Of a stretch of 64,000 nt of DNA, positions 2,217-41,844 are shown piece after piece (positions within the stretch are counted from its first letter, which is position 1; each line of letters opens with the position of its first letter). The translations under genes and the position numbers were made by a program. Source of the DNA: a candidate division WS6 bacterium GW2011_GWF2_39_15 (GTDB taxonomy: Bacteria; Patescibacteriota; Dojkabacteria; SC72); contig LBWK01000001.1 in assembly GCA_000993565.1 (NCBI GenBank), forward strand, positions 84,869-148,868, given 5' to 3'. The notes beneath the pieces are model-generated. The model was not told the origin of the DNA, ran no database searches, and worked only from the letters and a program-made list of their open reading frames with translations.

Positions 2217-3643
2217 TGTTTCAGTTTATCAAATATCATATTCTTAACGGTTTGAGCATCTGCCTGGCCTTTGAGTTCTCTCATTGCCTGACCGACAAGA
2301 AACATTGCAGCATTAGGATTTCTTCTAGCATCTTCGACAGCCTTTAGGTTACTTGTAAATATACGATTAACAACTGTTTCAAGAACCGAAGTATCACTTA
2401 CCATTTCGAGACCTTTAGTTTTAATAATATTACCAATGTATTCACCCGTATCGAAACTTTCTTCAAGGATCTCTTTTGCATTTGATCTTGTGATTTTCTT
2501 TTGAATTACCATATCAACAAGTTCCGTTAGCCATTCAGACTTAAACTCTTTACTGCGTTTATTACTGTTCACAAGAGAAAAATAATCACCGACGAACCAT
2601 TTAGAAACTTCAGATACCAATTGAGAATTTACATTCGCAGTTATGCTTTCAAATTCGAGGAAAGTATCTACGTCGTTAATTATAGCTTCAGCGGTATCTT
2701 TCTCTATTCCGTATTCTTTAATATATCTATCCTTCTTTTCCTGAGGTAATTCAGGAATTGTATTCTTGATCTCATCAATCATTTCCTGGGAGAGCTTGAT
2801 TAAGGGTATGTCTGGTTCCGGGAAGTATCTATAATCAGCTTCATTTTCTTTTGATCTCTGAGAGACTGTTTCTCCGGTCATATCAATTAATCCTCGTGTC
2901 TCTTGTTTTGGTGTCTGACCATTTTCAAGTATCTCATATTGCCTCTTCAGCTCATGTTCTATGACTTTTTCCAGTACAGAAATAGATGCTATGTTCTTAA
3001 CCTCAACCTTATACTTAGGAAGCTCTTGGTCACCCTTTTTCCTCAATGACATGTTCAACTCGAATCTCATTTCACCACGCTCCATATCAGCATTTGAAAC
3101 TCCTAAGTATCTGACAATCTGTCTTAAGCGTTTGCAATAGGCGGTGACTTCCTCTTTTGACCTGAAATCAGGCTCCGAAACTATCTCAATCAGAGGGACG
3201 CCCGATTTATTAAAGTCCAGAAGTGTTTCTCCGTTATTATGAATTGATTTTCCTGTGTCTTCCTCCTGATGAACTCTGGTAACGCCAATTCTTTTCACAC
3301 CTTCTTTGGTTTCAATGTTTGTATAACCTGAATACCCTATTGGTTGATCATACTGGGAAATTTGAAAACCTTTGGGAAGGTCAGGGTAGAAGTAGTTTTT
3401 TCTATCAAACTTTGTTTCCTGATTTATACTGCAGTTTAAAGCAAGAGCAGTTTTTATGCAGAGTTCTACAGCTCTTTTGTTTGGGACTGGCAAGGCTCCT
3501 GGAAGCCCAAAGCAAACTGGACAAACGTGAGTATTTGGAGGGGTATTAAAGTAGTTGGCATCACAACTGCAAAACATCTTTGACTTTGTTCTTGATTGAA
3601 CATGAACTTCAAGTCCAATAACAATCTCATAGGAATCAGACAT
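2213..3643 (-). CDS. gatB: Asp/Glu-tRNA amidotransferase subunit B
   Basis: 476 aa. The N-terminus MSDSYEIVIGLEVHVQ...KMFCSC and the central GatB/YqeY-like regions match GatB. Confidence 0.9.
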   Translation of the reverse strand: MSDSYEIVIGLEVHVQSRTKSKMFCSCDANYFNTPPNTHVCPVCFGLPGALPVPNKRAVELCIKTALALNCSINQETKFDRKNYFYPDLPKGFQISQYDQPIGYSGYTNIETKEGVKRIGVTRVHQEEDTGKSIHNNGETLLDFNKSGVPLIEIVSEPDFRSKEEVTAYCKRLRQIVRYLGVSNADMERGEMRFELNMSLRKKGDQELPKYKVEVKNIASISVLEKVIEHELKRQYEILENGQTPKQETRGLIDMTGETVSQRSKENEADYRYFPEPDIPLIKLSQEMIDEIKNTIPELPQEKKDRYIKEYGIEKDTAEAIINDVDTFLEFESITANVNSQLVSEVSKWFVGDYFSLVNSNKRSKEFKSEWLTELVDMVIQKKITRSNAKEILEESFDTGEYIGNIIKTKGLEMVSDTSVLETVVNRIFTSNLKAVEDARRNPNAAMFLVGQAMRELKGQADAQTVKNMIFDKLKQ

Positions 3644-19073: not shown

Positions 19074-19679
19074 CTACATTAAACTCATAACGTACTCGAC
19101 CTTTCTGGCCCATTCATTTGGTGTATGAGGGTTATAACGTGGTGCAATCTGACGCGGTGTAACAAGCCCAGATGAGTAATAACGAGAAAGACCTCTCGAA
19201 ACCGTGTAGATGGCTTCTTCCCAACTTTTGAACGTGTACGGCGACATACTACCTCCCCAGCCCCATGCGTTGTAAGGTCTATAGGTATATTTGCCCCCGC
19301 TGGATTCTATAATGGAAATTGCAGCTACAAGTCGATAATCAATTCCAAATTCCTGTGCTGTCTTAACAAGGTACTCTGCCTTGGCCGCAAGCGGAGCCCC
19401 ACGTGAGGCAAGATAAGCCCTTACTTTTCTCACCTTAATTTGATCAACATCCATTAGCTCCAATTTACGGGAGACTGTTCTGTAATCAATTTCGTCGTCG
19501 GCACTTAATATCTGAGTCCTGCTATTTACGCTAGAAGAAGCAAAGACGGAACTTATATTTCCTGAGATTAGGTAGAAGAAAACACGCTCCTGCGACTTAA
19601 GCAATGCACCTGTAAATAATATAAGGGCAAACACATAAAGAAGAAAATTATTTATTTTTGATGAATATTTTCTTTTCAT
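19074..19679 (-). CDS. Secreted lysozyme-like (SLT-type) putative peptidoglycan hydrolase
   Basis: 201 aa with an N-terminal signal/TM. AQEFGIDYRLVAAISIIESSGG resembles the SLT catalytic region (..yGvdpxLllAiixxESxf..) with its ES Glu. A conserved NAWGWGG block follows. It is a paralog of 28279..28959 and of a domain inside 35215..38490. Confidence 0.4.
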   Translation of the reverse strand: MKRKYSSKINNFLLYVFALILFTGALLKSQERVFFYLISGNISSVFASSSVNSRTQILSADDEIDYRTVSRKLELMDVDQIKVRKVRAYLASRGAPLAAKAEYLVKTAQEFGIDYRLVAAISIIESSGGKYTYRPYNAWGWGGSMSPYTFKSWEEAIYTVSRGLSRYYSSGLVTPRQIAPRYNPHTPNEWARKVEYVMSLM

Positions 19680-29046: not shown

Positions 29047-32000
29047 ATGTCATTTACTCACCTACATTTACACTCAGAATATTCCTTATTGGACGGTGTT
29101 ATACGTATTCCTGAGCTGATTGCGAAGATTAAGGAGTGCGGCATGAATGCTTGTGCACTTACGGACCACGGCAACATGTACGGTACATTCAAATTCTATA
29201 ATGAGATGAAACATGCTGAGCTCAAACCGATTCTCGGATGTGAGATATACTTAGCCCCACGGACAAGATTTGATAAGGAAGCCGGTACAGATAATAAAAC
29301 CCCGCATCTAACTGTCCTTGCCCAAAACCTAACCGGTTACAAAAATCTTGTGAAGCTCGTATCCTCAGGCTTCATGGAAGGCTTCTATTATCGCCCAAGA
29401 GTAGATTGGGAAATTCTTGAGAAATACTCTGAAGGACTAATAGTTCTTTCTGGATGCTTAAGCGGCCCAGTATCAAAACTTTTCAGAGATGGAAGGGGGA
29501 AGGAGGCTGTAAAAACAGCTCAAAAGTTTAAAGATCTTTTTAAAGACCGATATTTCTTGGAAATTCAAAGGAATGGCATTAAAGAGCAGGACGATTTAAA
29601 TCTGGAGCTAATCAAACTTTCAAAAGAGCTTAATATACCCCTTGTAGCAACATGTGACGCCCACTATGTAAATAAAGAAGACTATAATGTACAGGAAATC
29701 GTATGGGCCATTTCTGACGGTAAAACGCTTGATGACCCGACACGCCGTGTTGCACCAACCAAAGAATACTACTTCAAAAACCAGCAGGAGATGGAGGAGC
29801 TCTTCAAAGATCTTCCAGAAGCTATATCCAATACCCAAAAAATTGTTGATATGGTTGAGGATTTCTCAATCTCATTCGGCAGAGTAGAACCCCATTATCT
29901 GGATCTTCCCGAAGGCGTAACGCCAAAGGATCATCTTCGTGATCTTGTAATGCAGGGGGCACAAAAGAAATATAAAGAGATTACGGATGAAATTCAGACA
30001 AGAATTGACTATGAGCTGGAAATCATTGATGACAAGGGCTATAACAACTATTTCCTTGTAGTATATGATTTCGTTAGATATTGCGTTGAGAACGGCATCA
30101 TGGTTGGAGCCAGAGGTTCGGCAGTAGGTACAGTTGTCGGATACTGCCTTAATATTGCAGGTGTTGATCCGATAACATGGGAGTTGTACTTCGAAAGATT
30201 TCTTAACCCCGGTAGGGAGTCACCTCCGGATATAGACCTGGATATTTCAGATCAGAGACGTCAGGAACTCATTAAATACGCACAGGTGAAGTATGGGGAA
30301 CCCAACGTCCGGCAGATCATTACATTCAGCAAGCTCCAGACCAGGCAGGCAATAAGGGACGTATCAAGAGTTATGGGCATTGATCTTCAGACTGCTGATA
30401 AACTCTCAAAACTTGTCAAGGTCGAATTCGGAAAAACCAAACCAATTGATTATATGATGGAGAACAACCCTGAGTTTGCTGAGATAATAAATTCATCCGA
30501 AAAGCTTCAGCAGATGTCACAGGTGGTGAAAAAAATTGCGGGACTTGCCCGTGGTGTATCAATGCATGCATGTGGAGTCATTGTGGCACCTGAACCCGTT
30601 GACAACTTCATTCCTATACAAAGAGACTCAAAAGATGAAGGTGTTGGAATGGCTCAGTTTGAAATGACAGACTTAGAGTATGTAGGCCTCCTTAAGCTGG
30701 ACTTCCTGGGTTTGAAAAACCTGAACATTATTGATACAGCTGTAAGAAAAATAAAAAGGCACAAGGGAATTGACCTCGATTTAAGCACTATTGATGTCAA
30801 TGATCAAAATATTTATCAAATGCTCAGAGACGGACATACAATGGGAGTTTTCCAACTTGAGGGGGAGGGTATGACAAAAGCTTTGATTACGATCCGTCCA
30901 GAAACCCCTGAAGACCTCTGTTATCTCCTTGCAGCCTATCGTCCTGGGCCAATTGAGTTCATTCCTCAATATGCCGCGGTCAAAAAGGGTGAAAAGCAGC
31001 CTACATACATTATTGACGACCTTGAACCAATTCTTGGAGTTACAAACGGAGTCATCACATATCAAGAGCAGGTAATGAAAATCGCAACGGATATAGCCGG
31101 CTACACACTCTCAGAAGCTGACAATATGAGACGGGCGATGGGTAAGAAAAAGATGGAAATCATGGAAGCCGAAAAGCCCAAATTCATTAAGGGAGGTGTA
31201 GACAAGGGATATGCGGAAGAAAAAATCGCTGAAATATGGGACCTCCTAGTTAAATTTGCAAACTACGGTTTCAATAAATCACATGCAGCAGCCTATGCAA
31301 TGGTCTCATACTATACGGCCTATCTTAAGTACTACTACCCGTTAGAATACATGGCTGCCCTTCTTGAAGCTGATCTTGAAAACTTTAATCGTATTTCTCT
31401 TGATATCCAGGAATGCACCAGGCTTGGGATAGAGGTTGTACACCCAGATATAAACAAGAGCGGAAGCTTTTTTACAGTTGAAGAAGGTGATGTAAAAAGA
31501 ATCCGGTTCGGCCTTGGCGCCATTAAAAATGTCGGAGCCGAAATTGTTAGACAGATAGTAGCAGAGCAAACTCAAAACGGTGAATATCTCAGCCTCGATG
31601 ACTTTGTTTACAGAAATATCCAGCACAAGCTGCAAATGCGCGTCGTTGAATATCTAATTATGGCAGGGGCTATGGATGAGTGGGGAGACAGGGGTGCACT
31701 ACTTAAAATCCTTCCGGGGATATATGAGAGATTCAAAAAACAAAAACAAACCGAGGCTAACGGACAAATAGACTTCTTCAATAACGGAGAGACTCAGGAA
31801 TCTTCGATTGAGTTAATGAAAACACCTGTCCCAACAGATATTCACACACCCATGCACCAGATTCTACAGTGGGAAAAAGAGTTATTAGGATTGTATTTCA
31901 CCAGTCATCCGTTGGATGACCTTCAGGAGTTCTTTGCTCAAAAAGGAGTAATTCCTATAAAAAATTTAATAACGATAAAAGGCGGAAGGCTTGTCATACT

Positions 32001-32451
32001 TGGTGCTTTGATTACGAAAGTACGAAGGATCACAACCAAGAAAGGTGAGAGAATGGCCTTCCTTACCATTGAAGACAAAACATCCTCAATAGATGCTTTA
32101 GTCTTTCCAAGAACATATGAAGAGATGAAAGATATGTTTGAGGCTAATAAACCCATACTAATTGCGGCACGTATCTCAGAGCGGGATGAAGGTAAAAGCG
32201 TTATCCTTGAGAAGGCAAAATATGTTGATCAGGATAAATTTGCATCAGATTTTAAAGGTGTCATCTTTAAAATAACAAAGAAAAACACTAAAAAACAGAT
32301 TGCACAGTTAAAAGAGTATATTAAAACAAATGCAGGCGATACGGCAGTCCGAATACTAATTCAGGAAGGGAAAGATATGAAAACCGTTGAGATTAAAAAT
32401 AAAATTACCCTAGACCAAAAGGGCAGAGAACTAATGAATATATTTTCATAA
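29047..32451 (+). CDS. dnaE: DNA polymerase III alpha subunit
   Basis: 1134 aa. The PHP domain starts MSFTHLHLHSEYSLLDG. The Pol III alpha palm/fingers and an OB-fold C-terminus are present. GGAG Shine-Dalgarno (aaaaggagt) lies 6 nt upstream. Confidence 0.9.
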   Translation: MSFTHLHLHSEYSLLDGVIRIPELIAKIKECGMNACALTDHGNMYGTFKFYNEMKHAELKPILGCEIYLAPRTRFDKEAGTDNKTPHLTVLAQNLTGYKNLVKLVSSGFMEGFYYRPRVDWEILEKYSEGLIVLSGCLSGPVSKLFRDGRGKEAVKTAQKFKDLFKDRYFLEIQRNGIKEQDDLNLELIKLSKELNIPLVATCDAHYVNKEDYNVQEIVWAISDGKTLDDPTRRVAPTKEYYFKNQQEMEELFKDLPEAISNTQKIVDMVEDFSISFGRVEPHYLDLPEGVTPKDHLRDLVMQGAQKKYKEITDEIQTRIDYELEIIDDKGYNNYFLVVYDFVRYCVENGIMVGARGSAVGTVVGYCLNIAGVDPITWELYFERFLNPGRESPPDIDLDISDQRRQELIKYAQVKYGEPNVRQIITFSKLQTRQAIRDVSRVMGIDLQTADKLSKLVKVEFGKTKPIDYMMENNPEFAEIINSSEKLQQMSQVVKKIAGLARGVSMHACGVIVAPEPVDNFIPIQRDSKDEGVGMAQFEMTDLEYVGLLKLDFLGLKNLNIIDTAVRKIKRHKGIDLDLSTIDVNDQNIYQMLRDGHTMGVFQLEGEGMTKALITIRPETPEDLCYLLAAYRPGPIEFIPQYAAVKKGEKQPTYIIDDLEPILGVTNGVITYQEQVMKIATDIAGYTLSEADNMRRAMGKKKMEIMEAEKPKFIKGGVDKGYAEEKIAEIWDLLVKFANYGFNKSHAAAYAMVSYYTAYLKYYYPLEYMAALLEADLENFNRISLDIQECTRLGIEVVHPDINKSGSFFTVEEGDVKRIRFGLGAIKNVGAEIVRQIVAEQTQNGEYLSLDDFVYRNIQHKLQMRVVEYLIMAGAMDEWGDRGALLKILPGIYERFKKQKQTEANGQIDFFNNGETQESSIELMKTPVPTDIHTPMHQILQWEKELLGLYFTSHPLDDLQEFFAQKGVIPIKNLITIKGGRLVILGALITKVRRITTKKGERMAFLTIEDKTSSIDALVFPRTYEEMKDMFEANKPILIAARISERDEGKSVILEKAKYVDQDKFASDFKGVIFKITKKNTKKQIAQLKEYIKTNAGDTAVRILIQEGKDMKTVEIKNKITLDQKGRELMNIFS

Positions 32452-33926
32452 TGAGTGTTAATTTGAAAGAAAAAATTCTTCTATTGCCAGACTCTCCGGG
32501 GGTTTATAAATTCTATAATAAGAACGGAGAAATAATATATATAGGTAAGGCACATAGCCTAAGAAATAGAGTATCTTCATACTTCAAGTCAGACCACAGA
32601 GACCGGCCGAGAATAATATCAATGATCCCTTTGATTGCTGATCTCGAAGTAACGCAAACAGACAATGATATTGAGGCACTTATTTTGGAATCTGCTCTCA
32701 TTAAACAGAATCAGCCGGAATATAATTCAATGCTTAAGGACGACAAGAGTTATGCATGGCTTTATGTAATAACAAAAAGCAGATATCCAACCGTAAAAAT
32801 TGTTCGAACCACTAATAAGAGTGAGTTTATAAATGGTAAGCTATTTGGTCCGTACCCTAGTGGTAAAACAATTAAAAGGGTCTTCAACTATATAAGAAAG
32901 CTCTATCCTTTTTGTACAAGCAAGGATCCATCAAAACCCTGCTTCTATTCCAGAATTGGTCTATGCCCCGGACCCGATGCTTCTGAAGAGGTATACCAAA
33001 ATAATATAAAGGGCATAATAAATCTTCTTAAAGGACGAAATTATAATCAGTTAAGAGTACTTGCTGAGAAAATGCGTACATATGCACAAAACCGGCAGTA
33101 CGAAAGAGCCGCTGAAATTAGGGACCGTATTAATGACCTCAAATATTTAGGTTCGGAGATCAAATTCAATTACTTCGGAACAGAAGAAGAATATGTGGAG
33201 AGCCGGGAAGAAAGAATGAGAAAACAGCTAAATCAGCTACAAAAGATTCTGGGTCTGGAAAAACTAAATAGAGTGGAATGCTATGATATATCAAATATAC
33301 AGGGAAAAATGTCTTACGGCTCAATGGTGGTAAGTATAAACGGGGTTCCAACAAACCGGCTTTATAGAATATTTAAAATAAGATCGATGGATACACCTAA
33401 TGATTATCTGATGCTTGCAGAAGTTTTGTCACGAAGGATCAAGCACATAAATGGTGACAAAGATGAAAGTTTAACTGAAAAGCCAGACCTAATAATTATA
33501 GATGGGGGAAAGGGGCAGCTTTCAGCAGTTCACAAAATTATACCTTCTGGGATAGCGATATTAGGAATTACAAAAGGGAGGAAATATAAAAGAAAAGGAG
33601 GAAAAAAGAAAGATGAGTTTTGGATTTACAATAATGGAACGATAGAACAGCTCAAAATTGGCCCACAGCAAAGTATTTCAATCCTTAGAGATGAGGCACA
33701 CAGGTTTGCCATCATTCATCACCGTAAATTAAGAAAGTTTATGCAAAAGAAATCAATACTGGATGAGATTAAAGGAGTAGGGGCTATAACCAAGAAAAAG
33801 CTAATCAAAGCTTTTGGCAGCGTAGAGCAAATTCGAGGGGTTTCACTCGAAGAAATAGATAAGGTGATACATAATAAGAAGATATCAGAAGCGATCAACT
33901 CCGCTCTTAAAAGGTTTAAAGTTTGA
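32451..33926 (+). CDS. uvrC: Excinuclease ABC subunit C (compact form)
   Basis: 491 aa. The GIY-YIG domain is LPDSPGVYKFYNKNGEIIYIGKAHSLRNRVSSYF. A UVR-like region (YERAAEIRDRINDL) is present. The C-terminal HhH is ILDEIKGVGAITKKKLIKAFGS. The start overlaps the dnaE stop. Confidence 0.85.
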   Translation: MSVNLKEKILLLPDSPGVYKFYNKNGEIIYIGKAHSLRNRVSSYFKSDHRDRPRIISMIPLIADLEVTQTDNDIEALILESALIKQNQPEYNSMLKDDKSYAWLYVITKSRYPTVKIVRTTNKSEFINGKLFGPYPSGKTIKRVFNYIRKLYPFCTSKDPSKPCFYSRIGLCPGPDASEEVYQNNIKGIINLLKGRNYNQLRVLAEKMRTYAQNRQYERAAEIRDRINDLKYLGSEIKFNYFGTEEEYVESREERMRKQLNQLQKILGLEKLNRVECYDISNIQGKMSYGSMVVSINGVPTNRLYRIFKIRSMDTPNDYLMLAEVLSRRIKHINGDKDESLTEKPDLIIIDGGKGQLSAVHKIIPSGIAILGITKGRKYKRKGGKKKDEFWIYNNGTIEQLKIGPQQSISILRDEAHRFAIIHHRKLRKFMQKKSILDEIKGVGAITKKKLIKAFGSVEQIRGVSLEEIDKVIHNKKISEAINSALKRFKV

Positions 33927-33928
33927 TT

Positions 33929-35017
33929 TTAATTAAGAGTGCTTTTTGCGGGCTCAACCTTTTCAATAATATACTTAAGGAACGGATCACTCTCCTGATC
34001 AGCAATAAACATATAAACAACTGTATCTCTTGGATTGCCTACTATATAAGCTTCAGTCTGTACATTACCGCTAAAAAGCTTCCCGGAAAGAGCCTCCTGG
34101 CCTGCTACAACAGTGACTGTAGTATTAGAGACCTGCCATTTGGTTTTATGTGCCTTGTTGAATTTCTTTAAGCCTTTTTCTAAAAAAGCATCATAACTAA
34201 TTGCACCCATATAGCCTAAAGGCTCAATTGTAACTGACTTGTTAGAGCCTAGCTTTTTAAAGCTCACTTTAATTAATTCACCTATGTCGGTAGCTCCATA
34301 CGTAGCGATATAGTCACTTGAGAAACTCAGCTTCCAAGGGAAATCAGGACGCAAGTCTTGCATATCACTCTCAGAGAGTAGAAGTTGAAGCTCAACCTCC
34401 TTTTTGACTTCGTCAGACAGCCCCGTTGATGCCTGCTCCTGTGTTATTGACTGATACCAAATATCGTTGAGTTTAGAATAGATTCTGACTCCAATTGTGC
34501 CTTTTACCCAATACTCTCCGAACTTTTGTTCCTCTGATTCCAACGGAACGGAAAGGACCTCCTTCCATCCCGCTTTAGGCAGGTGTTCCTTATAATAGTT
34601 ATTGACATCTTCTATTGTGTGTCCAGGCTCAAGTCTGTAAACTGCCTGGCCAGTACTTAAGAACCTCTTCACATCATCGTTATTCAGTTTATCCTTGAAA
34701 ATGAAAACTGAGTTCGGGTACTCCGGTATTTCAGCAAATCCGACAACATTAGTGAGACTCACATCCGTTCCATCAAGAATATTTCTTCTTAAGTTCGAAA
34801 CGTAATTAATTAAAAGAAAAAGCACAATAACAACAAGGGCTCCAAAAGTGAGAATTAAGAATATCTTTATAAAGGATCTACCAAACATTTTTTTGTATAA
34901 CCTTCCTCTGGTCACCTCTGTATATTTAGTCTTTCTTCTTTTGAAAAAGCTCAAAACCTTCCTTTGTAGAGATTTTCTTTCCTTTATTTTTCTTTTATCA
35001 AGCTCCTTGAATTTCAT
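33929..35017 (-). CDS. Hypothetical single-pass membrane protein with extracytoplasmic domain
   Basis: 362 aa. A basic N-terminus (KRKIKERKSLQRK...) precedes a TM helix (IKIFLILTFGALVVIVLFLLINYV) and a 290-aa soluble domain. I see no recognisable motif. Confidence 0.4.
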   Translation of the reverse strand: MKFKELDKRKIKERKSLQRKVLSFFKRRKTKYTEVTRGRLYKKMFGRSFIKIFLILTFGALVVIVLFLLINYVSNLRRNILDGTDVSLTNVVGFAEIPEYPNSVFIFKDKLNNDDVKRFLSTGQAVYRLEPGHTIEDVNNYYKEHLPKAGWKEVLSVPLESEEQKFGEYWVKGTIGVRIYSKLNDIWYQSITQEQASTGLSDEVKKEVELQLLLSESDMQDLRPDFPWKLSFSSDYIATYGATDIGELIKVSFKKLGSNKSVTIEPLGYMGAISYDAFLEKGLKKFNKAHKTKWQVSNTTVTVVAGQEALSGKLFSGNVQTEAYIVGNPRDTVVYMFIADQESDPFLKYIIEKVEPAKSTLN

Positions 35018-35092
35018 ATAATTCTAATTTAATAGAAAGTTTGTTATATTACAAATCGAAATAGTATAATATACAGGATTTTTATTTATATA

Positions 35093-35166
35093 TGCGGGAT
35101 CGTCTAATGGTAGGACACCGGCCTTTGAAGCCGTGAATCCTGGTTCGAGTCCAGGTCCCGCAACCA
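35093..35166 (+). tRNA. tRNA-Gln (anticodon TTG), U1-A72, CCA encoded
   Basis: Sequence tgcggga-tc-gtctaatggtagga-c-a-ccggc-ctTTGaa-gccgt-gaat-cctggttcgagtccagg-tcccgca-a-cca. The U1:A72 pair matches E. coli tRNA-Gln. Confidence 0.7.
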
Positions 35167-35214
35167 CTTGGGACATATATACAAAGAACCAATTAAGGTG
35201 GTACTATACTAAAT

Positions 35215-38200
35215 ATGAAATCCAAGAAGAAACTTGTTTCAAGAAACTCCAAATTTATATTCACTTTAATATTTATTATCCTAATTGTTGCCGGATTTTT
35301 TTACACACGAGACCTCTTTACGTCAAAAGCCCGTAATGTAAAAATCTCCAATATAACTTCAACCTCAGTGACATTAACCTGGGTCACCACTAAGAAAAAT
35401 GCCGGTATAGTTCTCGTAAAAGAAGGCTCTAATATTGGAAATTCATGGAAGGACTTTTTTACAGCACGAAGATACTACGATGACAGGGATATCTATATTA
35501 CTGCTACAAAAACAGTGATAAATGCTGAGCGAAGATATACACATTATGTTACGATCAACCATCTGACACCTGAAAAAAAATACTATTTCAGACTTTCTAA
35601 TGGCCTTCACATCTGGGATATCAAAGACGTTAATCAGAAGAAAGAGTGGTATGGAATAGATAACATATCATCTTTTCAATTTACAACCCCCGCAATTTCC
35701 TCCTCGGGACTGACACTTCCCCAGACAGTTTATGGCAATTTGGAAGATCAGAAAGCCCTTGCATATTCAGATGGGATTATCTTTGGACAGATTTACAGTG
35801 TTAACGATGAGGGAGAGGTTGATATTCAAAACAAATCCAGAATAATTTCTACTTTTGTCAATGACGATGGGGGATGGGTTCTTGACTACTCATTAGAAAA
35901 AAATGGATTCGAAAATAACAAGGATCAAATATATCTTTATGCTCACATTGAAAATAAAAGTGATATTCCGGGACAATTCGAAAATATCACAAGCGGAAGC
36001 AGTATCGTAGACCTTTTTGACTATGACCGCACACAATCATTAAGGCCTAGTTTTCTTCTTTCGCTCTCAAAACCTGTTTCGGCGGCAGGTGACCCAGTTT
36101 GTTGTGCCTTAATTATCAGCGGTAGAAAGAACGTTCTTTTTGATTATGAGGAGGCCGGGGCATGTACAACATGTGGCGAATGCTACAAGGTGGGAACCCA
36201 GGAATCAGGCGGAACACTATTAGAAGTAGGCAGTATTAAACCAAGAGGAGACAATGATGCGGAAAGGAGAAACAACTGTGAGAGTATGGATAGACTTGCA
36301 AGTAAAGGCTTACCCGCTGGTTCTGAAGACCAAAGCTCCAGTAGTAGTAATAATAACAGTAATAGCTCAGAAAATAGTTTCAGCGGTGCTTGTAATACGA
36401 GCTTAAAGGATGAGGATTTTACAGTATCAAACATAGATAAATCGCAATTTGTTGACTACGCAAAAAGACTTGGAGGAGGTGGAACACAAGCTGACAAATG
36501 TTATAACTACGTTGTATGTAAATCAAAGCAGTATGGAATAAATCCTGCACTTGGTCTGAGTATCTGGGTTCATGAATCTGCCGCAAGTGACTACCAAAGA
36601 TTTCCAAACGTTGAGGATATGGGTATCCACTGTTATGGCGGAGCAGGGAACTATCCTGCTTACCCATGTAATCAAACTCCTAAAGAGAATCTAAAAGCAC
36701 AGACCGAAATGTTTGGCCTTTTACCTCATACACAATGCCAATCCGGTGGTAGTTTTAATATCACTAAATGGGCAACAGGATTTTGGACAGGGAATTGTTC
36801 TGAGACTTCATATGGTGAGAAATATGTGGATGATCTTGAGTTGCAATGGAGTGTCTACGGAAAAGGTGCTTTTCCAAATTGGCTGAAGAATGCAGGAACT
36901 GCAAAACCTAACCTACCGTGTGATCAAGTAGCAAGTTCAACTCCTTCAACCCCCTCAACCCCGACAACCCCTTCTACACCTTCAACCCCTTCTACACCTT
37001 CAACACCAAGTACACCGACGACACCTAGCCAAAATACCGGAGAAAAATGTTGTGCCTTTATCCTTAAAGGGGAGAATGTCTATCGAAGTGAAAAAACTAC
37101 ATCCAATAGCTGTGCTGATGCTTTCGCAAAGGGTAGTTCCTATACTAGTGGGAATATATCGGGAACTATAGACTATGGAGTGGAAATAGGCAGGAAAGAG
37201 GTTCAAGTAATTAAACCCGCATGTTGTGCAATGATAGTTACAGGGAAAGATAATGTATATTTCGATTATGTAAATGACAAAATCTGCAACACTTGCGGAG
37301 ACTGCTTCCCCGTCGGGAGGACAGTAGCGGGAGGGAGAGTTACTGCAGTCGGAAGAGAGGTTCTGACGGGTGCTAACGACAACAGAACCACCTGTGAGTC
37401 TATAAAAAGGCCCGCCTCTTCAGGTGTTCCAGCCGATACTCCAGTCGAACCAGTTTTTTCAAACAAATGTAGCGGAACACAATATGATATAGAATGTAAA
37501 AACTATTTGCCTGTACCTAAAGGGGAAAATGCAATATCAGCTCCATATGGAGAAAATACCAGATGCCTAGATCCAAATGTGAAGCCCATAGAAGACGGTA
37601 TTACTAATATAATCATCAGCAAGGAAAATCCAAAAGTATTTACAAAACTACTCTCAACAGTACAGGCGGAAGAAAGCTACGTTAAATCAGTATCAGGGTC
37701 AGTTGTAACTTTCACAAAAGACGGAATATACAATATTGAGATTGGTGACCTGAAAGTATCAAATGTACCAATTAACTCAGATGGGAAATATAGATTCTAC
37801 CAAGAAATAAATGAGGAACGAGGATATCAAAGTTCTAAAGACAAAGCTCTAACGTTCAAAAATAAAAATGAGATAAAAGCTGTAAAGGTTGAAGACGGCT
37901 TTAGAGTTGAACTCAATGCTGGTTATAACTTCATTACAATCAACTATGAACGTCCTCCGATGTCTATTATAACTACGCCTGCAAATCCGACACAGATAAC
38001 CGCAGCTTCTGTATTAAATATTGGAAATATTGATGAAATCAAAGTAACATACCTGAGCACTTATGCAGATGGCAAGTGGGCAAATGGTATAAGGCCCCGT
38101 GATGATAAAAAGCCCGGGTTACTTGGGAATGACTTTGCTCTTCTCCCGGGACAAGGTTATATGATTATTTCAAACTCAGACCTGAAGGGCGGAATGGCCC

Positions 38201-38490
38201 TGATACTGCCAGGCAAAATTACTTCATCAAAAGTTTCAGTTGAAGTGAAAACCGGGTGGAACTTTGTTGGTTTAACAGGAAAAATCCAGCCACCTTCTTC
38301 TCTCAAATTTTTGGAGAAACTAATGAAGGAACATGGTTTAGCAAAAGTGAATATTACTCAGTGGGATTCAAGCAAGGGACTATTTGAGAGTGTTCAATAT
38401 GATGGAGAGATAGTATACGGAGACGATTACAATTTGAATAATGCTTCAGGGTACTTCTTGTATACGAATAAAGCTTTCACCCTTAAATAG
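35215..38490 (+). CDS. Large multidomain cell-surface protein (FN3-like, Cys-rich repeat modules, SLT-like domain, Pro/Thr/Ser linker, beta-rich C-terminal region)
   Basis: 1091 aa with an N-terminal TM anchor. The FN3 / purple-acid-phosphatase-N-like stretch is ISNITSTSVTLTWVTT...YYFRLS. Cys-rich module copies start at CCALIISGRKNVLFDYEEAGACTTCGECYKVG...NNCESMDRLASKGLPAG, CCAFILKGENVY... and CCAMIVTGKDNVYFDYVNDKICNTCGDCFPVG...TTCESIKRPASSGVPAD. The SLT-like block is YGINPALGLSIWVHESAASDY. The linker is STPSTPSTPTTPSTPSTPSTPSTPSTPTTPS. Confidence 0.6.
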   Translation: MKSKKKLVSRNSKFIFTLIFIILIVAGFFYTRDLFTSKARNVKISNITSTSVTLTWVTTKKNAGIVLVKEGSNIGNSWKDFFTARRYYDDRDIYITATKTVINAERRYTHYVTINHLTPEKKYYFRLSNGLHIWDIKDVNQKKEWYGIDNISSFQFTTPAISSSGLTLPQTVYGNLEDQKALAYSDGIIFGQIYSVNDEGEVDIQNKSRIISTFVNDDGGWVLDYSLEKNGFENNKDQIYLYAHIENKSDIPGQFENITSGSSIVDLFDYDRTQSLRPSFLLSLSKPVSAAGDPVCCALIISGRKNVLFDYEEAGACTTCGECYKVGTQESGGTLLEVGSIKPRGDNDAERRNNCESMDRLASKGLPAGSEDQSSSSSNNNSNSSENSFSGACNTSLKDEDFTVSNIDKSQFVDYAKRLGGGGTQADKCYNYVVCKSKQYGINPALGLSIWVHESAASDYQRFPNVEDMGIHCYGGAGNYPAYPCNQTPKENLKAQTEMFGLLPHTQCQSGGSFNITKWATGFWTGNCSETSYGEKYVDDLELQWSVYGKGAFPNWLKNAGTAKPNLPCDQVASSTPSTPSTPTTPSTPSTPSTPSTPSTPTTPSQNTGEKCCAFILKGENVYRSEKTTSNSCADAFAKGSSYTSGNISGTIDYGVEIGRKEVQVIKPACCAMIVTGKDNVYFDYVNDKICNTCGDCFPVGRTVAGGRVTAVGREVLTGANDNRTTCESIKRPASSGVPADTPVEPVFSNKCSGTQYDIECKNYLPVPKGENAISAPYGENTRCLDPNVKPIEDGITNIIISKENPKVFTKLLSTVQAEESYVKSVSGSVVTFTKDGIYNIEIGDLKVSNVPINSDGKYRFYQEINEERGYQSSKDKALTFKNKNEIKAVKVEDGFRVELNAGYNFITINYERPPMSIITTPANPTQITAASVLNIGNIDEIKVTYLSTYADGKWANGIRPRDDKKPGLLGNDFALLPGQGYMIISNSDLKGGMALILPGKITSSKVSVEVKTGWNFVGLTGKIQPPSSLKFLEKLMKEHGLAKVNITQWDSSKGLFESVQYDGEIVYGDDYNLNNASGYFLYTNKAFTLK
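36937..37026 (+). repeat. Imperfect 9-bp tandem repeat (TCA/TCT-ACM-CCT units) encoding the (S/T)TP(S/T) linker
   Basis: Sequence tcaactcct tcaaccccc tcaaccccg acaacccct tctacacct tcaacccct tctacacct tcaacacca agtacaccg acgacacct. These are 10 nonamer units in frame. Confidence 0.7.
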
Positions 38491-40465
38491 CGTTTAGATC
38501 CTTTATCTGGTCTCTAATTTCAGCAGCCTTTTCGAATTGAAGGTTGCTTGCATATAAATGCATCTTATCCTCAAGATCTTTAATAACTCTTTTGATCTCA
38601 CTTTTAGGAGGTTTGGCTCCCTTTATCCATTCTGAGTAATCAAATTCAAGCTCTTCTTCACTTTTCTCAACTAATCTATCTCTAATAGCTTTAATAATAC
38701 TTTGAGGCGTTATTCCCTTCTTTTTGTTATACTCTTCCTGATATTTACGCCTTCTTTGCGTTTCCGAAATGGCATACTTCATACTCTCAGTCAGAGAATC
38801 TGCATACATAATAACCCGACCCTCAACATGTCGTGCAGCTCTCCCAATTGTCTGAACCAGGCTGGTTTTAGATCTTAAGAATCCTTCCTTATCAGCATCT
38901 AAAATAATAACCAATGAGACTTCTGGCAGATCAATCCCCTCCCTTAACAGGTTTATACCGACTAAAACATCATACTCACCTAATCTTAAATCGCGAAGGA
39001 TATCGACTCTCTCAACAGTGTCAACATCTGAGTGAAGATATTGAACTTTAATATCAAGATCCCTTAGATATTCTGCAAGGTCTTCGGCCATCTTTTTTGT
39101 GAGAGTTGTGATTAGGACGCGCTGTTTCTTCTCTATATTCTTTCTAACTTCCTCAATAACATCATCAATTTGATTATTTGTAGGACGAATATCTACCTTA
39201 GGATCTAAAAGTCCCGTAGGACGTGTCAGAAGCTCTGTGAGAGACCCTTTAGAATCAGTGATCTCCCATTCGTCAGGGGTAGCAGAGTAGTAGATTGTGT
39301 TTCCCTGTTTAGACTGAAACTCACTAAACTTTAAAGGTCTATTATCTTTTGCAGAAGGTAATCTGAAACCGTATTCAACAAGATTGTCTTTCCTAGCACT
39401 GTCACCGTTGTACATACCCCTTACCTGAGGAATAGTAATATGAGACTCATCTACAAATAGGAGGTAGTCTTTAGGAAAGTAGTCAAGAAGAGTATACGGA
39501 GGATCTCCGGCAGATCTACCGTCGAAGTATATAGAGTAATTTTCCATGCTTTTACAAAATCCTACCTCTCTAATCATTTCCATGTCGTATCGAGTTTTTT
39601 GCAAAAGCCTGTGAGCCTCCAATTCCTTACCAATACTTCTTAAAAAGGAAACTCTATCATTCAGATCTTTTTCGATTTTAACAAGAGCACCTTCAATAAC
39701 ATCATTACCGTAAACAAGCGACGTTGCAGGATATATTTCAACTTCATCAATCTCCTTTATTTTATGTGTTGAGATAGCATCTATATATGAAATCCTCTCA
39801 ATAGTATTTCCCCAAAACTCAACTCTAACAGGGAAATCATCATAAGGCATAAAAACATCAACAATGTCACCTTTGACTCTGAATGAACCTGGAACGAAAT
39901 CTTCTCCCTGTCTGTTATATCTCATTAATGTTAAGTCCATGGATATCTTGGATAGCTCTATCTCTTCGCCTCTCCTAAGTGTTAAAGCCTTGTTTTCATA
40001 GTTATCGGGGCTCCCAATATTATATATACACGATACTGATGCCACTACAATTGTATCCCTTCTCGTCACGGCAGCATTCATTGCTGAAAATCTCAGCCTC
40101 TCAATCTGTTGATTCACCTCTGACTCTTTCTCAATATACAGGTCACGGTTCGGAATATACGCTTCCGGCTGATAATAGTCATAGTATGATACGAAATACT
40201 TGACGGCATTGTCAGGAAAGAATTCTTTGAACTCTTCATATAGCTGTGCCGCTAGTGTTTTGTTATGTGAAAGGATAAGTGCAGGTCGATTAAGCTCCTT
40301 AATGATATTAGCCATTACATATGTTTTTCCAGAACCAGTTACTCCCAAAAGAACTTGCCTTTCATTACCCTTTTCAACATTTGATTTTAGGTTTTCAATC
40401 GCAATTTGTTGGTCTTTAGAAGGTGAGTATTTTGATTGTAGGTTAAAGGGATTATCTTTTCTCAT
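38483..40465 (-). CDS. uvrB: Excinuclease ABC subunit B
   Basis: 660 aa. Walker A is GVTGSGKTYVMANII. Helicase motifs, the beta-hairpin region and a C-terminal UVR domain (ASNLQFEKAAEIRDQIKDL) are present. Confidence 0.9.
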   Translation of the reverse strand: MRKDNPFNLQSKYSPSKDQQIAIENLKSNVEKGNERQVLLGVTGSGKTYVMANIIKELNRPALILSHNKTLAAQLYEEFKEFFPDNAVKYFVSYYDYYQPEAYIPNRDLYIEKESEVNQQIERLRFSAMNAAVTRRDTIVVASVSCIYNIGSPDNYENKALTLRRGEEIELSKISMDLTLMRYNRQGEDFVPGSFRVKGDIVDVFMPYDDFPVRVEFWGNTIERISYIDAISTHKIKEIDEVEIYPATSLVYGNDVIEGALVKIEKDLNDRVSFLRSIGKELEAHRLLQKTRYDMEMIREVGFCKSMENYSIYFDGRSAGDPPYTLLDYFPKDYLLFVDESHITIPQVRGMYNGDSARKDNLVEYGFRLPSAKDNRPLKFSEFQSKQGNTIYYSATPDEWEITDSKGSLTELLTRPTGLLDPKVDIRPTNNQIDDVIEEVRKNIEKKQRVLITTLTKKMAEDLAEYLRDLDIKVQYLHSDVDTVERVDILRDLRLGEYDVLVGINLLREGIDLPEVSLVIILDADKEGFLRSKTSLVQTIGRAARHVEGRVIMYADSLTESMKYAISETQRRRKYQEEYNKKKGITPQSIIKAIRDRLVEKSEEELEFDYSEWIKGAKPPKSEIKRVIKDLEDKMHLYASNLQFEKAAEIRDQIKDLNAI

Positions 40466-40494: not shown

Positions 40495-41052
40495 ATGCTT
40501 CAAATGATGTATTATAATACTGATACTATGTTAGGAGATCAATTTGTACGAGAACCAAAAGAACGACCAGTTGAAGCATCAGAAGTAGAATCATTACTTT
40601 TGGGATCTTCTGTGTATGTATGCCCAGCTGACGAGATCAGTGCTTCTGCGATAAGTTCCTTTTTCAATGAGGCAGAACTTAAGGAAATATTTGCATCACC
40701 CTTATTAAAACAGGGTGGTGTTATTGTTATCTGGAGAGGGATACTTTCAGTTCCATTTGGTATGGAAAAAGGTATTGTGAGGCTCAACACAAGATATCAA
40801 AACAATGAAACAACAGCCAATTTACATGGAGGAGAGCTTATAACCGATGTTGTACGGGATACGGAAAGTGGTAGAATCTTTAGATATAGCAATTTATTTC
40901 ATGACCAATACCCTGAATCTCCACACGGAGAATCCAATACTCAGCCATTAGGCAAAGTCTCACAATTGAGACATGCTATACTTATTAGGTCAGAAGTAAC
41001 CAATAGGCTTTTTGAACTAAATGAGATGATAAGGATTAGCCAAGATGCATGA
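40495..41052 (+). CDS. Hypothetical protein
   Basis: 185 aa with no recognisable motif. It lies only 29 nt from the divergent uvrB start, and its 8-nt overlap with the HIT gene suggests co-transcription. Coding status is uncertain. Confidence 0.35.
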   Translation: MLQMMYYNTDTMLGDQFVREPKERPVEASEVESLLLGSSVYVCPADEISASAISSFFNEAELKEIFASPLLKQGGVIVIWRGILSVPFGMEKGIVRLNTRYQNNETTANLHGGELITDVVRDTESGRIFRYSNLFHDQYPESPHGESNTQPLGKVSQLRHAILIRSEVTNRLFELNEMIRISQDA

Positions 41053-41476
41053 TCCAAGCTGCATATTCTGTAAAATTGTAAAAGGAGATATACCTTCATA
41101 TAAAATATATGAAGACGATAAATTTCTAGCCTTTCTAGATATCGCACAGTTTGTAGAAGGACACACCCTGCTTATCCCTAAAGAACATTTTGAGTTCGTA
41201 TGGGATATCACATATATCGGTGAATATTATAAAACAGCAAAGCAGATATCAGACCATTTCAGAAAGAGATTAGGTTATAAATATGTTGACAGTGCTACAT
41301 TTGGAAGGGATGTACCTCATGCACATTTACATCTGATACCTCATAACGAGACCGGTACTGACTGGGAGAAAGCCTTAAAAGAAATAGGTAATATGCAAAA
41401 GGATAGTTCAAGAAGAATAAATCCCAGTGAAGGTTCAATCCTTATAGAGAAATTTAGATTGAGTAGAATTACTTAG
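41045..41476 (+). CDS. HIT-family (histidine triad) nucleotide hydrolase/transferase
   Basis: 143 aa. CIFCKIVKGDIPSYKIYEDDKFLAFLD and the HAHLHLIPH histidine triad are present. Confidence 0.75.
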   Translation: MHDPSCIFCKIVKGDIPSYKIYEDDKFLAFLDIAQFVEGHTLLIPKEHFEFVWDITYIGEYYKTAKQISDHFRKRLGYKYVDSATFGRDVPHAHLHLIPHNETGTDWEKALKEIGNMQKDSSRRINPSEGSILIEKFRLSRIT

Positions 41477-41844
41477 TTTAATTCCACGAATTGGTAAGGT
41501 AGATTACTTTTTGGCCTATTAGTTATTTCAACAAAAATTATTGGGCTCGTTTCTGCTGATTTTAAGTATAACGTAAGCCCCATTCGAGAACTTAAATCGA
41601 AGTTATCTAGCAAAAAAGCTCTATTAGATTGTGCCCAGCCCTTACTTAAAGCAAGTGCTTCTATTCCGTCCTTCAATGCAGTCACATCATCAGTTAATCT
41701 CGTCTCAAGTAGCTGCAATTCCTTCGGAAGAGTACCTCTATTTTGCGGCTGTCCTTTAGCATATTCAATCATCGTAGCAGCTCTCGAAGCAAATTCACTC
41801 CATATCGTTTCAGTAGTGTTGGAATACTCTTTTGTTTCAACCAT
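41473..41844 (-). CDS. Hypothetical protein
   Basis: 123 aa, convergent with the HIT gene and divergent from mutL. It has no motif I recognise and is predicted helical. Confidence 0.35.
   Translation of the reverse strand: MVETKEYSNTTETIWSEFASRAATMIEYAKGQPQNRGTLPKELQLLETRLTDDVTALKDGIEALALSKGWAQSNRAFLLDNFDLSSRMGLTLYLKSAETSPIIFVEITNRPKSNLPYQFVELN

Follow-up and report, generated by a model that had tools for sequence, protein, structure and literature searches.

The uvrC-uvrB interval

This analysis concerns the interval between uvrC and uvrB in a 64-kb window (the whole stretch of DNA analysed, 64,000 nucleotides of contig LBWK01000001.1) from the candidate division WS6 bacterium GW2011_GWF2_39_15. 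The contig comes from a groundwater metagenome (PRJNA268031). The interval spans 4.56 kb (33929-38490) and holds three elements: on the minus strand a gene for a 362-aa membrane protein, here called h362 and annotated as UT34_C0001G0120, and on the plus strand a tRNA-Gln(ttg) gene followed by a gene for a predicted surface protein, here called BIG. An earlier reading of the same sequence, referred to below as the original prediction, had seen in this block a tRNA-associated insertion that split uvrC from uvrB. The block is instead very probably part of a gene neighbourhood conserved across Candidatus Dojkabacteria (WS6), a lineage belonging to the Candidate Phyla Radiation (CPR), in which a variable slot is filled in the clade of this genome by a vertically inherited BIG. 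The backbone of that neighbourhood, which runs dnaE-uvrC(+), h362(-), tRNA-Gln(+), variable slot, uvrB(-), mutL(+), is directly visible in the gene maps, and in the window it is made up of the following features.

29047-32451, plus strand: dnaE (DNA polymerase III alpha), the left synteny anchor, from Pfam and NCBIfam matches
32451-33926, plus strand: uvrC, short form, 491 aa, a TIGR00194 equivalog
33929-35017, minus strand: h362, 362 aa, single-pass membrane protein, from its hydrophobic segment and orthologues
35041-35070, plus strand: promoter-like site TTGTTA-18-TATAAT, putative in function, from a consensus scan
35093-35166, plus strand: tRNA-Gln(ttg) with encoded CCA, from ARAGORN and Rfam (63.4 bits)
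35215-38490, plus strand: BIG, 1091 aa, predicted membrane-anchored cysteine-rich surface protein
38483-38490, unstranded: convergent stop-codon overlap of BIG and uvrB, 8 nt, CTTAAATAG
38483-40465, minus strand: uvrB, 660 aa, the right synteny anchor, from NF003673
41901-43721, plus strand: mutL, the outer right anchor, from Pfam and NCBIfam

The coordinates on which the original prediction was built (uvrC ending at 33926, the uvrB stop at 38483 and three elements between) are all borne out by the open reading frame (ORF) map, the tRNA scan and the sequence. So is the 8-nt overlap, in which the TAG of BIG occupies 38488-38490 and the TAA of uvrB is the complement of 38483-38485. The word "giant" for the surface-protein gene was an overstatement for a product of 1091 aa. 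The identities of the two repair genes are secure: UvrC scores 369.6 bits against the NCBIfam model TIGR00194 (cut-off 285.45) and carries the GIY-YIG (PF01541), UVR (PF02151) and UvrC_RNaseH (PF08459) Pfam domains, the RNase H-like endonuclease included, and UvrB scores 984.6 bits against NF003673 (cut-off 743), with residues 7-658 covered. h362 converges on uvrC with a gap of 2 nt and diverges from tRNA-Gln, and BIG is the only gene in the variable slot of the window genome, the slot being measured from the 3' end of the tRNA to the uvrB stop.

The h362 protein has a basic N-terminus, one hydrophobic segment (aa 45-77), an external domain of ~285 aa and no cysteine. It has no Pfam match and, in a profile search, no significant sequence match in the PDB; a Pfam scan of 12 homologues at E <= 1 likewise returned only noise. 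In the searches run, it was found in Dojkabacteria-like genomes only.

Gene order across Dojkabacteria

A UvrB-seeded scan of 185,579 genomes (one per species) yielded 26 further Dojkabacteria-like loci with UvrB 67-77% identical to that of the window. Class-wide, loci were mapped by tblastn and ORFs, and ~25 to 30 of them are long enough to show gene order. Every one of these has dnaE-uvrC-h362(-) on one side and uvrB(-)-mutL on the other, dnaE preceding uvrC in every related locus that extends that far, and in all of them tRNA-Gln(ttg) lies within the uvrC-uvrB interval, adjoining h362 in each except L015 and L092 (related loci are numbered with the prefix L). Every Dojkabacteria locus has an h362 orthologue (32-58% identical) with uvrC on one side and tRNA-Gln on the other, and no feature of the block is better conserved than this position. 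Because both genes accompany uvrC in all Dojkabacteria loci examined, h362 and tRNA-Gln are ancestral backbone and not cargo; the slot 3' of the tRNA alone is fluid. The original prediction, which counted all three elements as inserted, thus fails for two of them.

The fluidity of the slot is considerable. Its length is 104 nt where it is empty (L018), 278-2,318 nt in some loci and 3.3-8.6 kb in others, with a maximum of 8,567 nt in L026. Outside the window's clade it is occupied by ordinary chromosomal genes, namely those for an RRM RNA-binding protein, an NAD-kinase-like protein, a ~90-aa protein, a Na/Ca exchanger, a patatin, polysaccharide deacetylases, ProRS, an ELP3-like radical SAM enzyme, Dus and an aldo-keto reductase. 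The rest of the 64-kb window contains no homologue of any of these slot genes. Deep hidden Markov models (HMMs) of the N- and C-terminal parts of BIG found no divergent family member in the slots of relatives that lack BIG, paralogues being present only beyond mutL. As a side observation, a 6.4-kb stretch inside the slot of L026 (13183-19607; 30% GC, no N runs) has no ORF longer than 123 aa and could consist of decayed genes or of non-coding DNA. More broadly, the arrangement dnaE-uvrC-h362-tRNA-Gln / slot / uvrB-mutL offers a usable synteny frame for following gene flux in CPR genomes.

Linkage of uvrB and uvrC within a few kilobases is itself familiar, and was seen in several of the outgroup genomes recovered: in Armatimonadia (L038-L040) the two abut, and in Methanobacteria (L045, L047, L050, L054) they lie 0.3-1.6 kb from each other. 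The Dojkabacteria differ in that uvrB and uvrC converge and that h362, tRNA-Gln and the variable slot always stand between them.

Within the window's clade the occupant of the slot is constant. A word-indexed search returned five full-length BIG homologues (P0001-P0005, 33-56% identity), named as proteins of Candidatus Dojkabacteria. The BIG-bearing clade comprises seven independent genomes, the window and six others, all from different assemblies: L003 (GCA_964621555.1), L004 (GCA_016182915.1), L006 (JGI 3300005077), L007 and L008 (both Logan), and L011. BIG is present in 7/7 of them and absent only in distant clades (UvrB identity 67-72%). The clade order is dnaE-uvrC-h362(-)-tRNA-Gln, then zero to four genes, then BIG(+)-uvrB(-), followed, on contigs long enough, by a HIT gene, a small ORF and mutL. 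Where extra genes occur they sit between tRNA-Gln and BIG: a cytidylyltransferase in L004, a short-chain dehydrogenase in L007, and in L003 a DHH protein, a dehydrogenase, an unknown protein and a kinase. BIG and uvrB overlap by 8 nt in the window, L003, L004, L007, L008 and L011 and by 4 nt in L006, and the junction sequence CTTAAATAG is kept across six genomes. Since this junction did not shift even as identity between the proteins fell to 33%, BIG is ancient in the slot; it would have entered, or have been there already, long before the clade genomes split, and would by now be compositionally native.

The comparison of gene order called for by the original prediction therefore has two outcomes. 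Other Dojkabacteria clades do lack BIG here, with uvrB as close as 104 nt to tRNA-Gln in L018; the order with BIG is nevertheless kept in all seven clade genomes. Conservation of that order together with a uniform composition had been named in advance as evidence against an insertion, and this is largely what is seen, with the reservation that BIG is absent from other clades.

Insertion, inheritance and the age of BIG in the slot

Two features that had appeared suggestive lose their force when set against the genome itself. The window contains 7 dispersed single tRNA genes per 64 kb, and a tRNA in a 4.56-kb stretch is therefore unremarkable (Poisson P of at least one ~0.39). The window is also ~95% coding, and among its convergent gene pairs 5/11 overlap by 4-18 nt, with a further 4 spaced by 0-13 nt; the 8-nt overlap of BIG and uvrB is consequently typical of the genome and reflects general compaction, as befits a member of CPR/Patescibacteria. 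In ultra-compact CPR genomes, then, a tRNA beside a lineage-specific gene and convergent overlapping stop codons are both normal background and carry no integration signal.

That the whole block of h362, tRNA-Gln and BIG is a genomic island, integrated at tRNA-Gln between a formerly adjacent uvrC and uvrB, is extremely unlikely. A tRNA does lie inside the block, some relatives at class level lack BIG and have uvrB within 104 nt of the tRNA, and L015, where a GIY-YIG gene stands between a tRNA-Gln fragment and the intact tRNA, indicates that mobile DNA can strike this tRNA. Every Dojkabacteria locus examined has h362 and tRNA-Gln in this place, which refutes the island for both of them, and the arrangement is kept across orthologues down to 33% identity. 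Neither of the two block proteins is a recombinase or integrase by Pfam and NCBIfam scans, nor was a recombinase found among 20 slot proteins of relatives (Pfam scan) or in the precomputed Pfam annotations of the slot genes of L003, L004, L007 and L092. Patterns of 28 and 16 nt from the tRNA-Gln 3' end, allowing <=3 mismatches, match only the tRNA itself in the window. An 18-mer scan of tRNA-Gln with <=2 mismatches was negative for the window and for 20/21 related loci, the exception being L015, and L092 has no partial copy either. The partial tRNA-Gln direct repeat that would mark an attachment site is thus missing from all of these, a repeat search over 32-41 kb returned no flanking direct repeats, and the 8-nt overlap of BIG and uvrB leaves no space for an att site. 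Nothing thus indicates that the tRNA serves as the integration landmark for which it had been taken.

Composition points the same way. Measured against the 61 window genes (GC 0.378 +/- 0.023), BIG has GC 0.396, GC at third codon positions (GC3) 0.324 and a codon-usage z of 0.4, and h362 has GC 0.382 and a z of 1.9. The GC of the block, 0.391, is equalled or exceeded by 18% of windows of the same size, and its tetranucleotide distance from the window average by 33%. The block accordingly shows no GC, codon or tetranucleotide deviation, and the difference from the flanks that had been anticipated does not appear. Genuine tRNA-associated islands and integrative elements resemble this locus in that a tRNA borders a stretch differing in gene content between related genomes. 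The locus departs from them in lacking a recombinase, a duplicate of the tRNA 3' segment and any compositional deviation; its cargo is one long-conserved gene, and the tRNA and the neighbouring h362 are universal backbone. The value of the result is mainly negative, in that a false mobile-element call is removed, and the finding itself is an ordinary one.

Two further observations belong beside these tests. An 83-nt inverted repeat brackets the block (33060-33142 against 38493-38575, 71% complementary) and was considered as a terminal repeat. It was rejected as such; it is the coding sequence of the homologous UVR motif in uvrC (aa ~200-232) and uvrB (aa ~625-658). In L015, a 78-aa GIY-YIG gene (Pfam E 4e-15) lies between a tRNA-Gln 5' fragment (3195-3250), which is rearranged, and the intact tRNA-Gln (3487-3557), which is inverted and adjoins uvrB. 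L015 is the sole locus with a tRNA-Gln fragment and the sole sign of mobile DNA at this tRNA.

Another way to account for the constancy of the BIG/uvrB junction is functional coupling, whereby BIG would be kept beside uvrB because the overlapping 3' ends regulate each other through transcriptional interference or antisense transcription, linking envelope functions to DNA-damage repair. The conservation in six genomes of the 8-nt overlap and of CTTAAATAG is what such coupling would predict, yet overlaps of 4-18 nt in 5/11 convergent pairs of the window speak for general compaction, BIG and uvrB lie 8 kb apart in L092, and most Dojkabacteria have uvrB without BIG. The idea is accordingly very unlikely.

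What remains is that BIG occupies the variable slot 3' of the tRNA as an ancient, clade-restricted gene, with no indication of tRNA-directed integration, and that it has been vertically inherited in the window's clade over a very long time, whether it was gained or ancestral. A neighbour-joining tree of DnaE, UvrC, UvrB and MutL (2,844 columns) splits the BIG-bearing loci from all others with 97% bootstrap, and trees rooted with bacterial and archaeal outgroups recover the BIG-bearing clade at 98% (UvrB and UvrC) and 80-90% (UvrB alone). An exhaustive profile search of 1.8 billion representative proteins added two more BIG relatives, P0022 in L091 and P0023 in L092. In L091 BIG abuts uvrB and uvrB adjoins mutL, and the locus is sister to the clade (79% bootstrap). 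In L092 BIG occupies the same inter-anchor interval ~8 kb from uvrB, with GreA, ProRS, PPDK and other genes between them and with tRNA-Gln inverted and adjoining uvrB; this locus groups with L015 (100% bootstrap) in a basal lineage. The trees, moreover, are neighbour-joining trees of 1-4 proteins with distant outgroups, and once L091 and L092 are added two gains and three losses are about equally parsimonious. Taken together, these points count against a confident polarity for the gene.

Two histories compete. BIG may have entered the slot once, on the stem of the window, L003, L004, L006, L007, L008 and L011, together with L091, by intragenomic translocation or by duplication of a family paralogue, the L092 copy being an independent placement; the chance of this falls just short of even. 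It accords with the monophyly of the BIG-bearing loci (80-98% bootstrap) with L091 as their sister, with the family paralogues that lie 5-8 kb from uvrB, beyond mutL and beside tRNA-Pro, in L013, L014, L019, L026 and L036, and with the different position and neighbours of BIG in L092. It is harder to reconcile with P0023, which is among the five closest BIG relatives of 1.8 billion proteins and sits in the same inter-anchor interval, as ancestral presence would have it; nor are the ~700-aa paralogues beyond mutL the nearest relatives of BIG (E ~1e-34 against <=1e-191). Alternatively, and with a probability clearly below even, BIG stood in the slot of the Dojkabacteria ancestor and then disappeared, or was relocated beyond mutL in shortened form, in L015, L021 and the large "class B" lineages during CPR genome reduction. 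The occurrence of orthologues in the slot of both the basal L092 lineage and the window's clade, and the highly fluid slot content of every lineage, speak for such a history. At least three losses are required, however, L015 lacks BIG although it is the sister of L092 (100% bootstrap), and the slot position and neighbours of BIG in L092 are unlike the clade A arrangement.

The BIG protein and its family

Within the BIG coding sequence the following parts, all on the plus strand, can be distinguished.

35254-35316: N-terminal hydrophobic anchor or uncleaved signal, aa ~14-34, from hydropathy windows and an AlphaFold2 (AF2) helix at aa 12-35
35326-35604: fn3 / purple-acid-phosphatase-N-like domain, aa 38-130, from PF16656
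36094-36324: cysteine-rich module, copy 1, aa 294-370, from internal comparison
36367-36939: central lysozyme-like domain, aa 385-575
36927-37025: Pro/Ser/Thr linker, peptide STPSTPSTPTTPSTP..., encoded by a 9-nt tandem repeat (direct-repeat family D1)
37216-37440: cysteine-rich module, copy 2, aa 668-742, with AF2 beta strands at a predicted local distance difference test (pLDDT) of ~63-83
37636-38472: C-terminal module, aa 808-1086, from the representative search and a domain HMM (E 1.4e-66)

The N-terminal domain passes PF16656 marginally (30.8 bits against a gathering threshold of 30), with fn3 below threshold in the Pfam scan, and distant members of the family score 33-47 bits for the same domain. 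An alignment of six orthologues shows that a beta-rich domain follows fn3 and that the central domain (aa 385-575) is highly conserved. The two cysteine-rich modules are 47% identical (E 5e-23), and a shorter CC-containing module (aa 610-660) lies ahead of copy 2. All 26 cysteines fall at aa 296-784 and make up 2.4% of residues, compared with 0-1.5% in other window proteins. The C-terminal module has no Pfam model. As to the linker, its coding sequence consists of eight in-register copies of the 9-nt repeat. Its length and composition vary in every orthologue, from Pro/Ser/Thr-rich to Asn/Gly/Ser-rich, and it is a likely site of slippage-driven length variation.

BIG is best described as a putative membrane-anchored surface protein with a divergent peptidoglycan-glycosidase-like domain. 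The central domain has a lysozyme-like alpha-helical fold, and within it the near-invariant pair Glu454-Ser455, part of the motif W-x-H-E-S, closes a helix on its C-terminal side, Glu454 being conserved in >=90% of 16 aligned sequences. A distant relative, P0007, joins the central domain to Peptidase_M23. Compared with the family 1 lytic transglycosylases Slt70, MltE and MltF, the GH73 glucosaminidases and g-type lysozyme, sequence identity is just 8-16%, and unlike these lysozyme-like glycosidases the central domain of BIG has seven cysteines and an inserted loop (aa 455-513).

In the model that these features suggest, the N-terminal hydrophobic helix would anchor BIG in the membrane, and the fn3-like domain and the beta domain would form a stalk. 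A lysozyme-like glycosidase domain would then be presented flanked by the duplicated disulfide-rich modules and the Pro/Ser/Thr linker. The most plausible activity, judged from the fold, would be to cleave or bind the glycan strands of peptidoglycan at the cell surface, and the target might be the bacterium's own wall or that of a host, in keeping with the episymbiotic life expected of a CPR bacterium. Expression might follow from the tRNA: a promoter-like site lies 23 nt upstream of tRNA-Gln, and because the gap between tRNA-Gln and the BIG start codon is 48 nt, with no terminator-like site in it by consensus scan, read-through from the tRNA-Gln promoter into BIG is suggested.

Several points temper this model. 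Foldseek ranks lysozyme-like proteins at the top for the central domain with weak E-values (best 0.059). The domain has no match to the Pfam SLT and Glucosaminidase models or to NCBIfam, a 16-sequence profile of it has no PDB sequence match at E <= 10, and the BIG profile found nothing significant there. The full-length AF2 model of BIG, built from 6 sequences, has a pLDDT of 49 and is unusable. We take Glu454-Ser455 to resemble the E-S motif of the family 1 lytic transglycosylases, a likeness of motif and not of superposed residues. Enzymatic activity, accordingly, is what the fold would predict, and co-transcription of tRNA-Gln and BIG is what the consensus scan makes possible. Even so, a fold-level annotation is gained for a protein otherwise labelled fn3-domain or hypothetical, whose lysozyme-like domain is missed by Pfam and NCBIfam models, and BIG, from an uncultivated lineage, becomes a candidate for a role in remodelling the cell wall or in host interaction. 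Elsewhere in the window, a 201-aa ORF (19074-19679, minus strand) has a marginal match (E 0.0011) to the central-domain HMM and may be a small stand-alone relative.

BIG belongs to a much larger family. A BIG profile search returned 1,260 clusters at E <= 0.001, of which 168 remained at E <= 1e-30, and most of these share just the N-terminal (profile 1-230) and C-terminal (~810-1088) modules, their middles being unrelated to each other and often cysteine-rich. The cluster names of 10 members gave no informative name or taxon. Large cysteine-rich extracellular proteins with a proposed role in attachment have been described for CPR bacteria of the Peregrinibacteria (PMC4736985). BIG resembles them in its size (~1,100 aa), its N-terminal export or anchor segment and the 26 cysteines of its exported part, and further in being without functional annotation, variable between lineages and assigned a proposed surface or attachment role. 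BIG thus has the size, anchor and cysteine content of that class, which is a descriptive class and not a homology family. Its architecture (fn3, beta domain, cysteine module, lysozyme-like domain, Pro/Ser/Thr linker, cysteine modules and C-terminal module) is its own. At its most ambitious, the evidence could be read as making the tRNA-Gln/uvrB interval a class-wide Dojkabacteria recombination hot spot that exchanges host-interaction genes. BIG would then be one cassette of the ~1,260-cluster modular family, whose N- and C-terminal modules would present a hypervariable disulfide-rich surface payload, here a divergent lysozyme-like enzyme for breaching or remodelling the host wall. Such a scheme is speculative and on balance unlikely.

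Members of the BIG family also occur near the uvrB-mutL anchor in several clades, their position differing. One or two paralogues of 700-1,019 aa lie beyond mutL beside tRNA-Pro, outside the tRNA-Gln slot, in L013 (1992-7417), L014, L019 (1-7443), L026 (67-936) and L036 (1-4239), and those of L013 flank a tRNA-Pro(tgg).

Some minor features of the flanks complete the description. The uvrC start codon overlaps the dnaE stop, and the 491 aa of UvrC (482-499 aa in relatives) compare with 567-698 positions in the UvrC family models matched. Of the 61 window genes, dnaE (29047-32451) deviates most in synonymous codon usage (z 4.9, GC3 0.399), further than any gene of the supposed insertion. Past uvrB, the window continues with a 185-aa ORF, HIT, a 123-aa ORF and mutL. 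The HIT gene and the small ORF between uvrB and mutL (41045-41844) are confined to the window's clade, and in the other Dojkabacteria clades (L012-L036), as in L091, uvrB and mutL are divergent neighbours with no gene between them. The 185-aa ORF (40495-41052, plus strand), which lies between uvrB and HIT, has a low GC3 of 0.259, no Pfam match and tblastn matches solely in the window's own genome (L001, L002). Relatives pass from uvrB straight to HIT without it, and it is the most lineage-specific gene of the neighbourhood.

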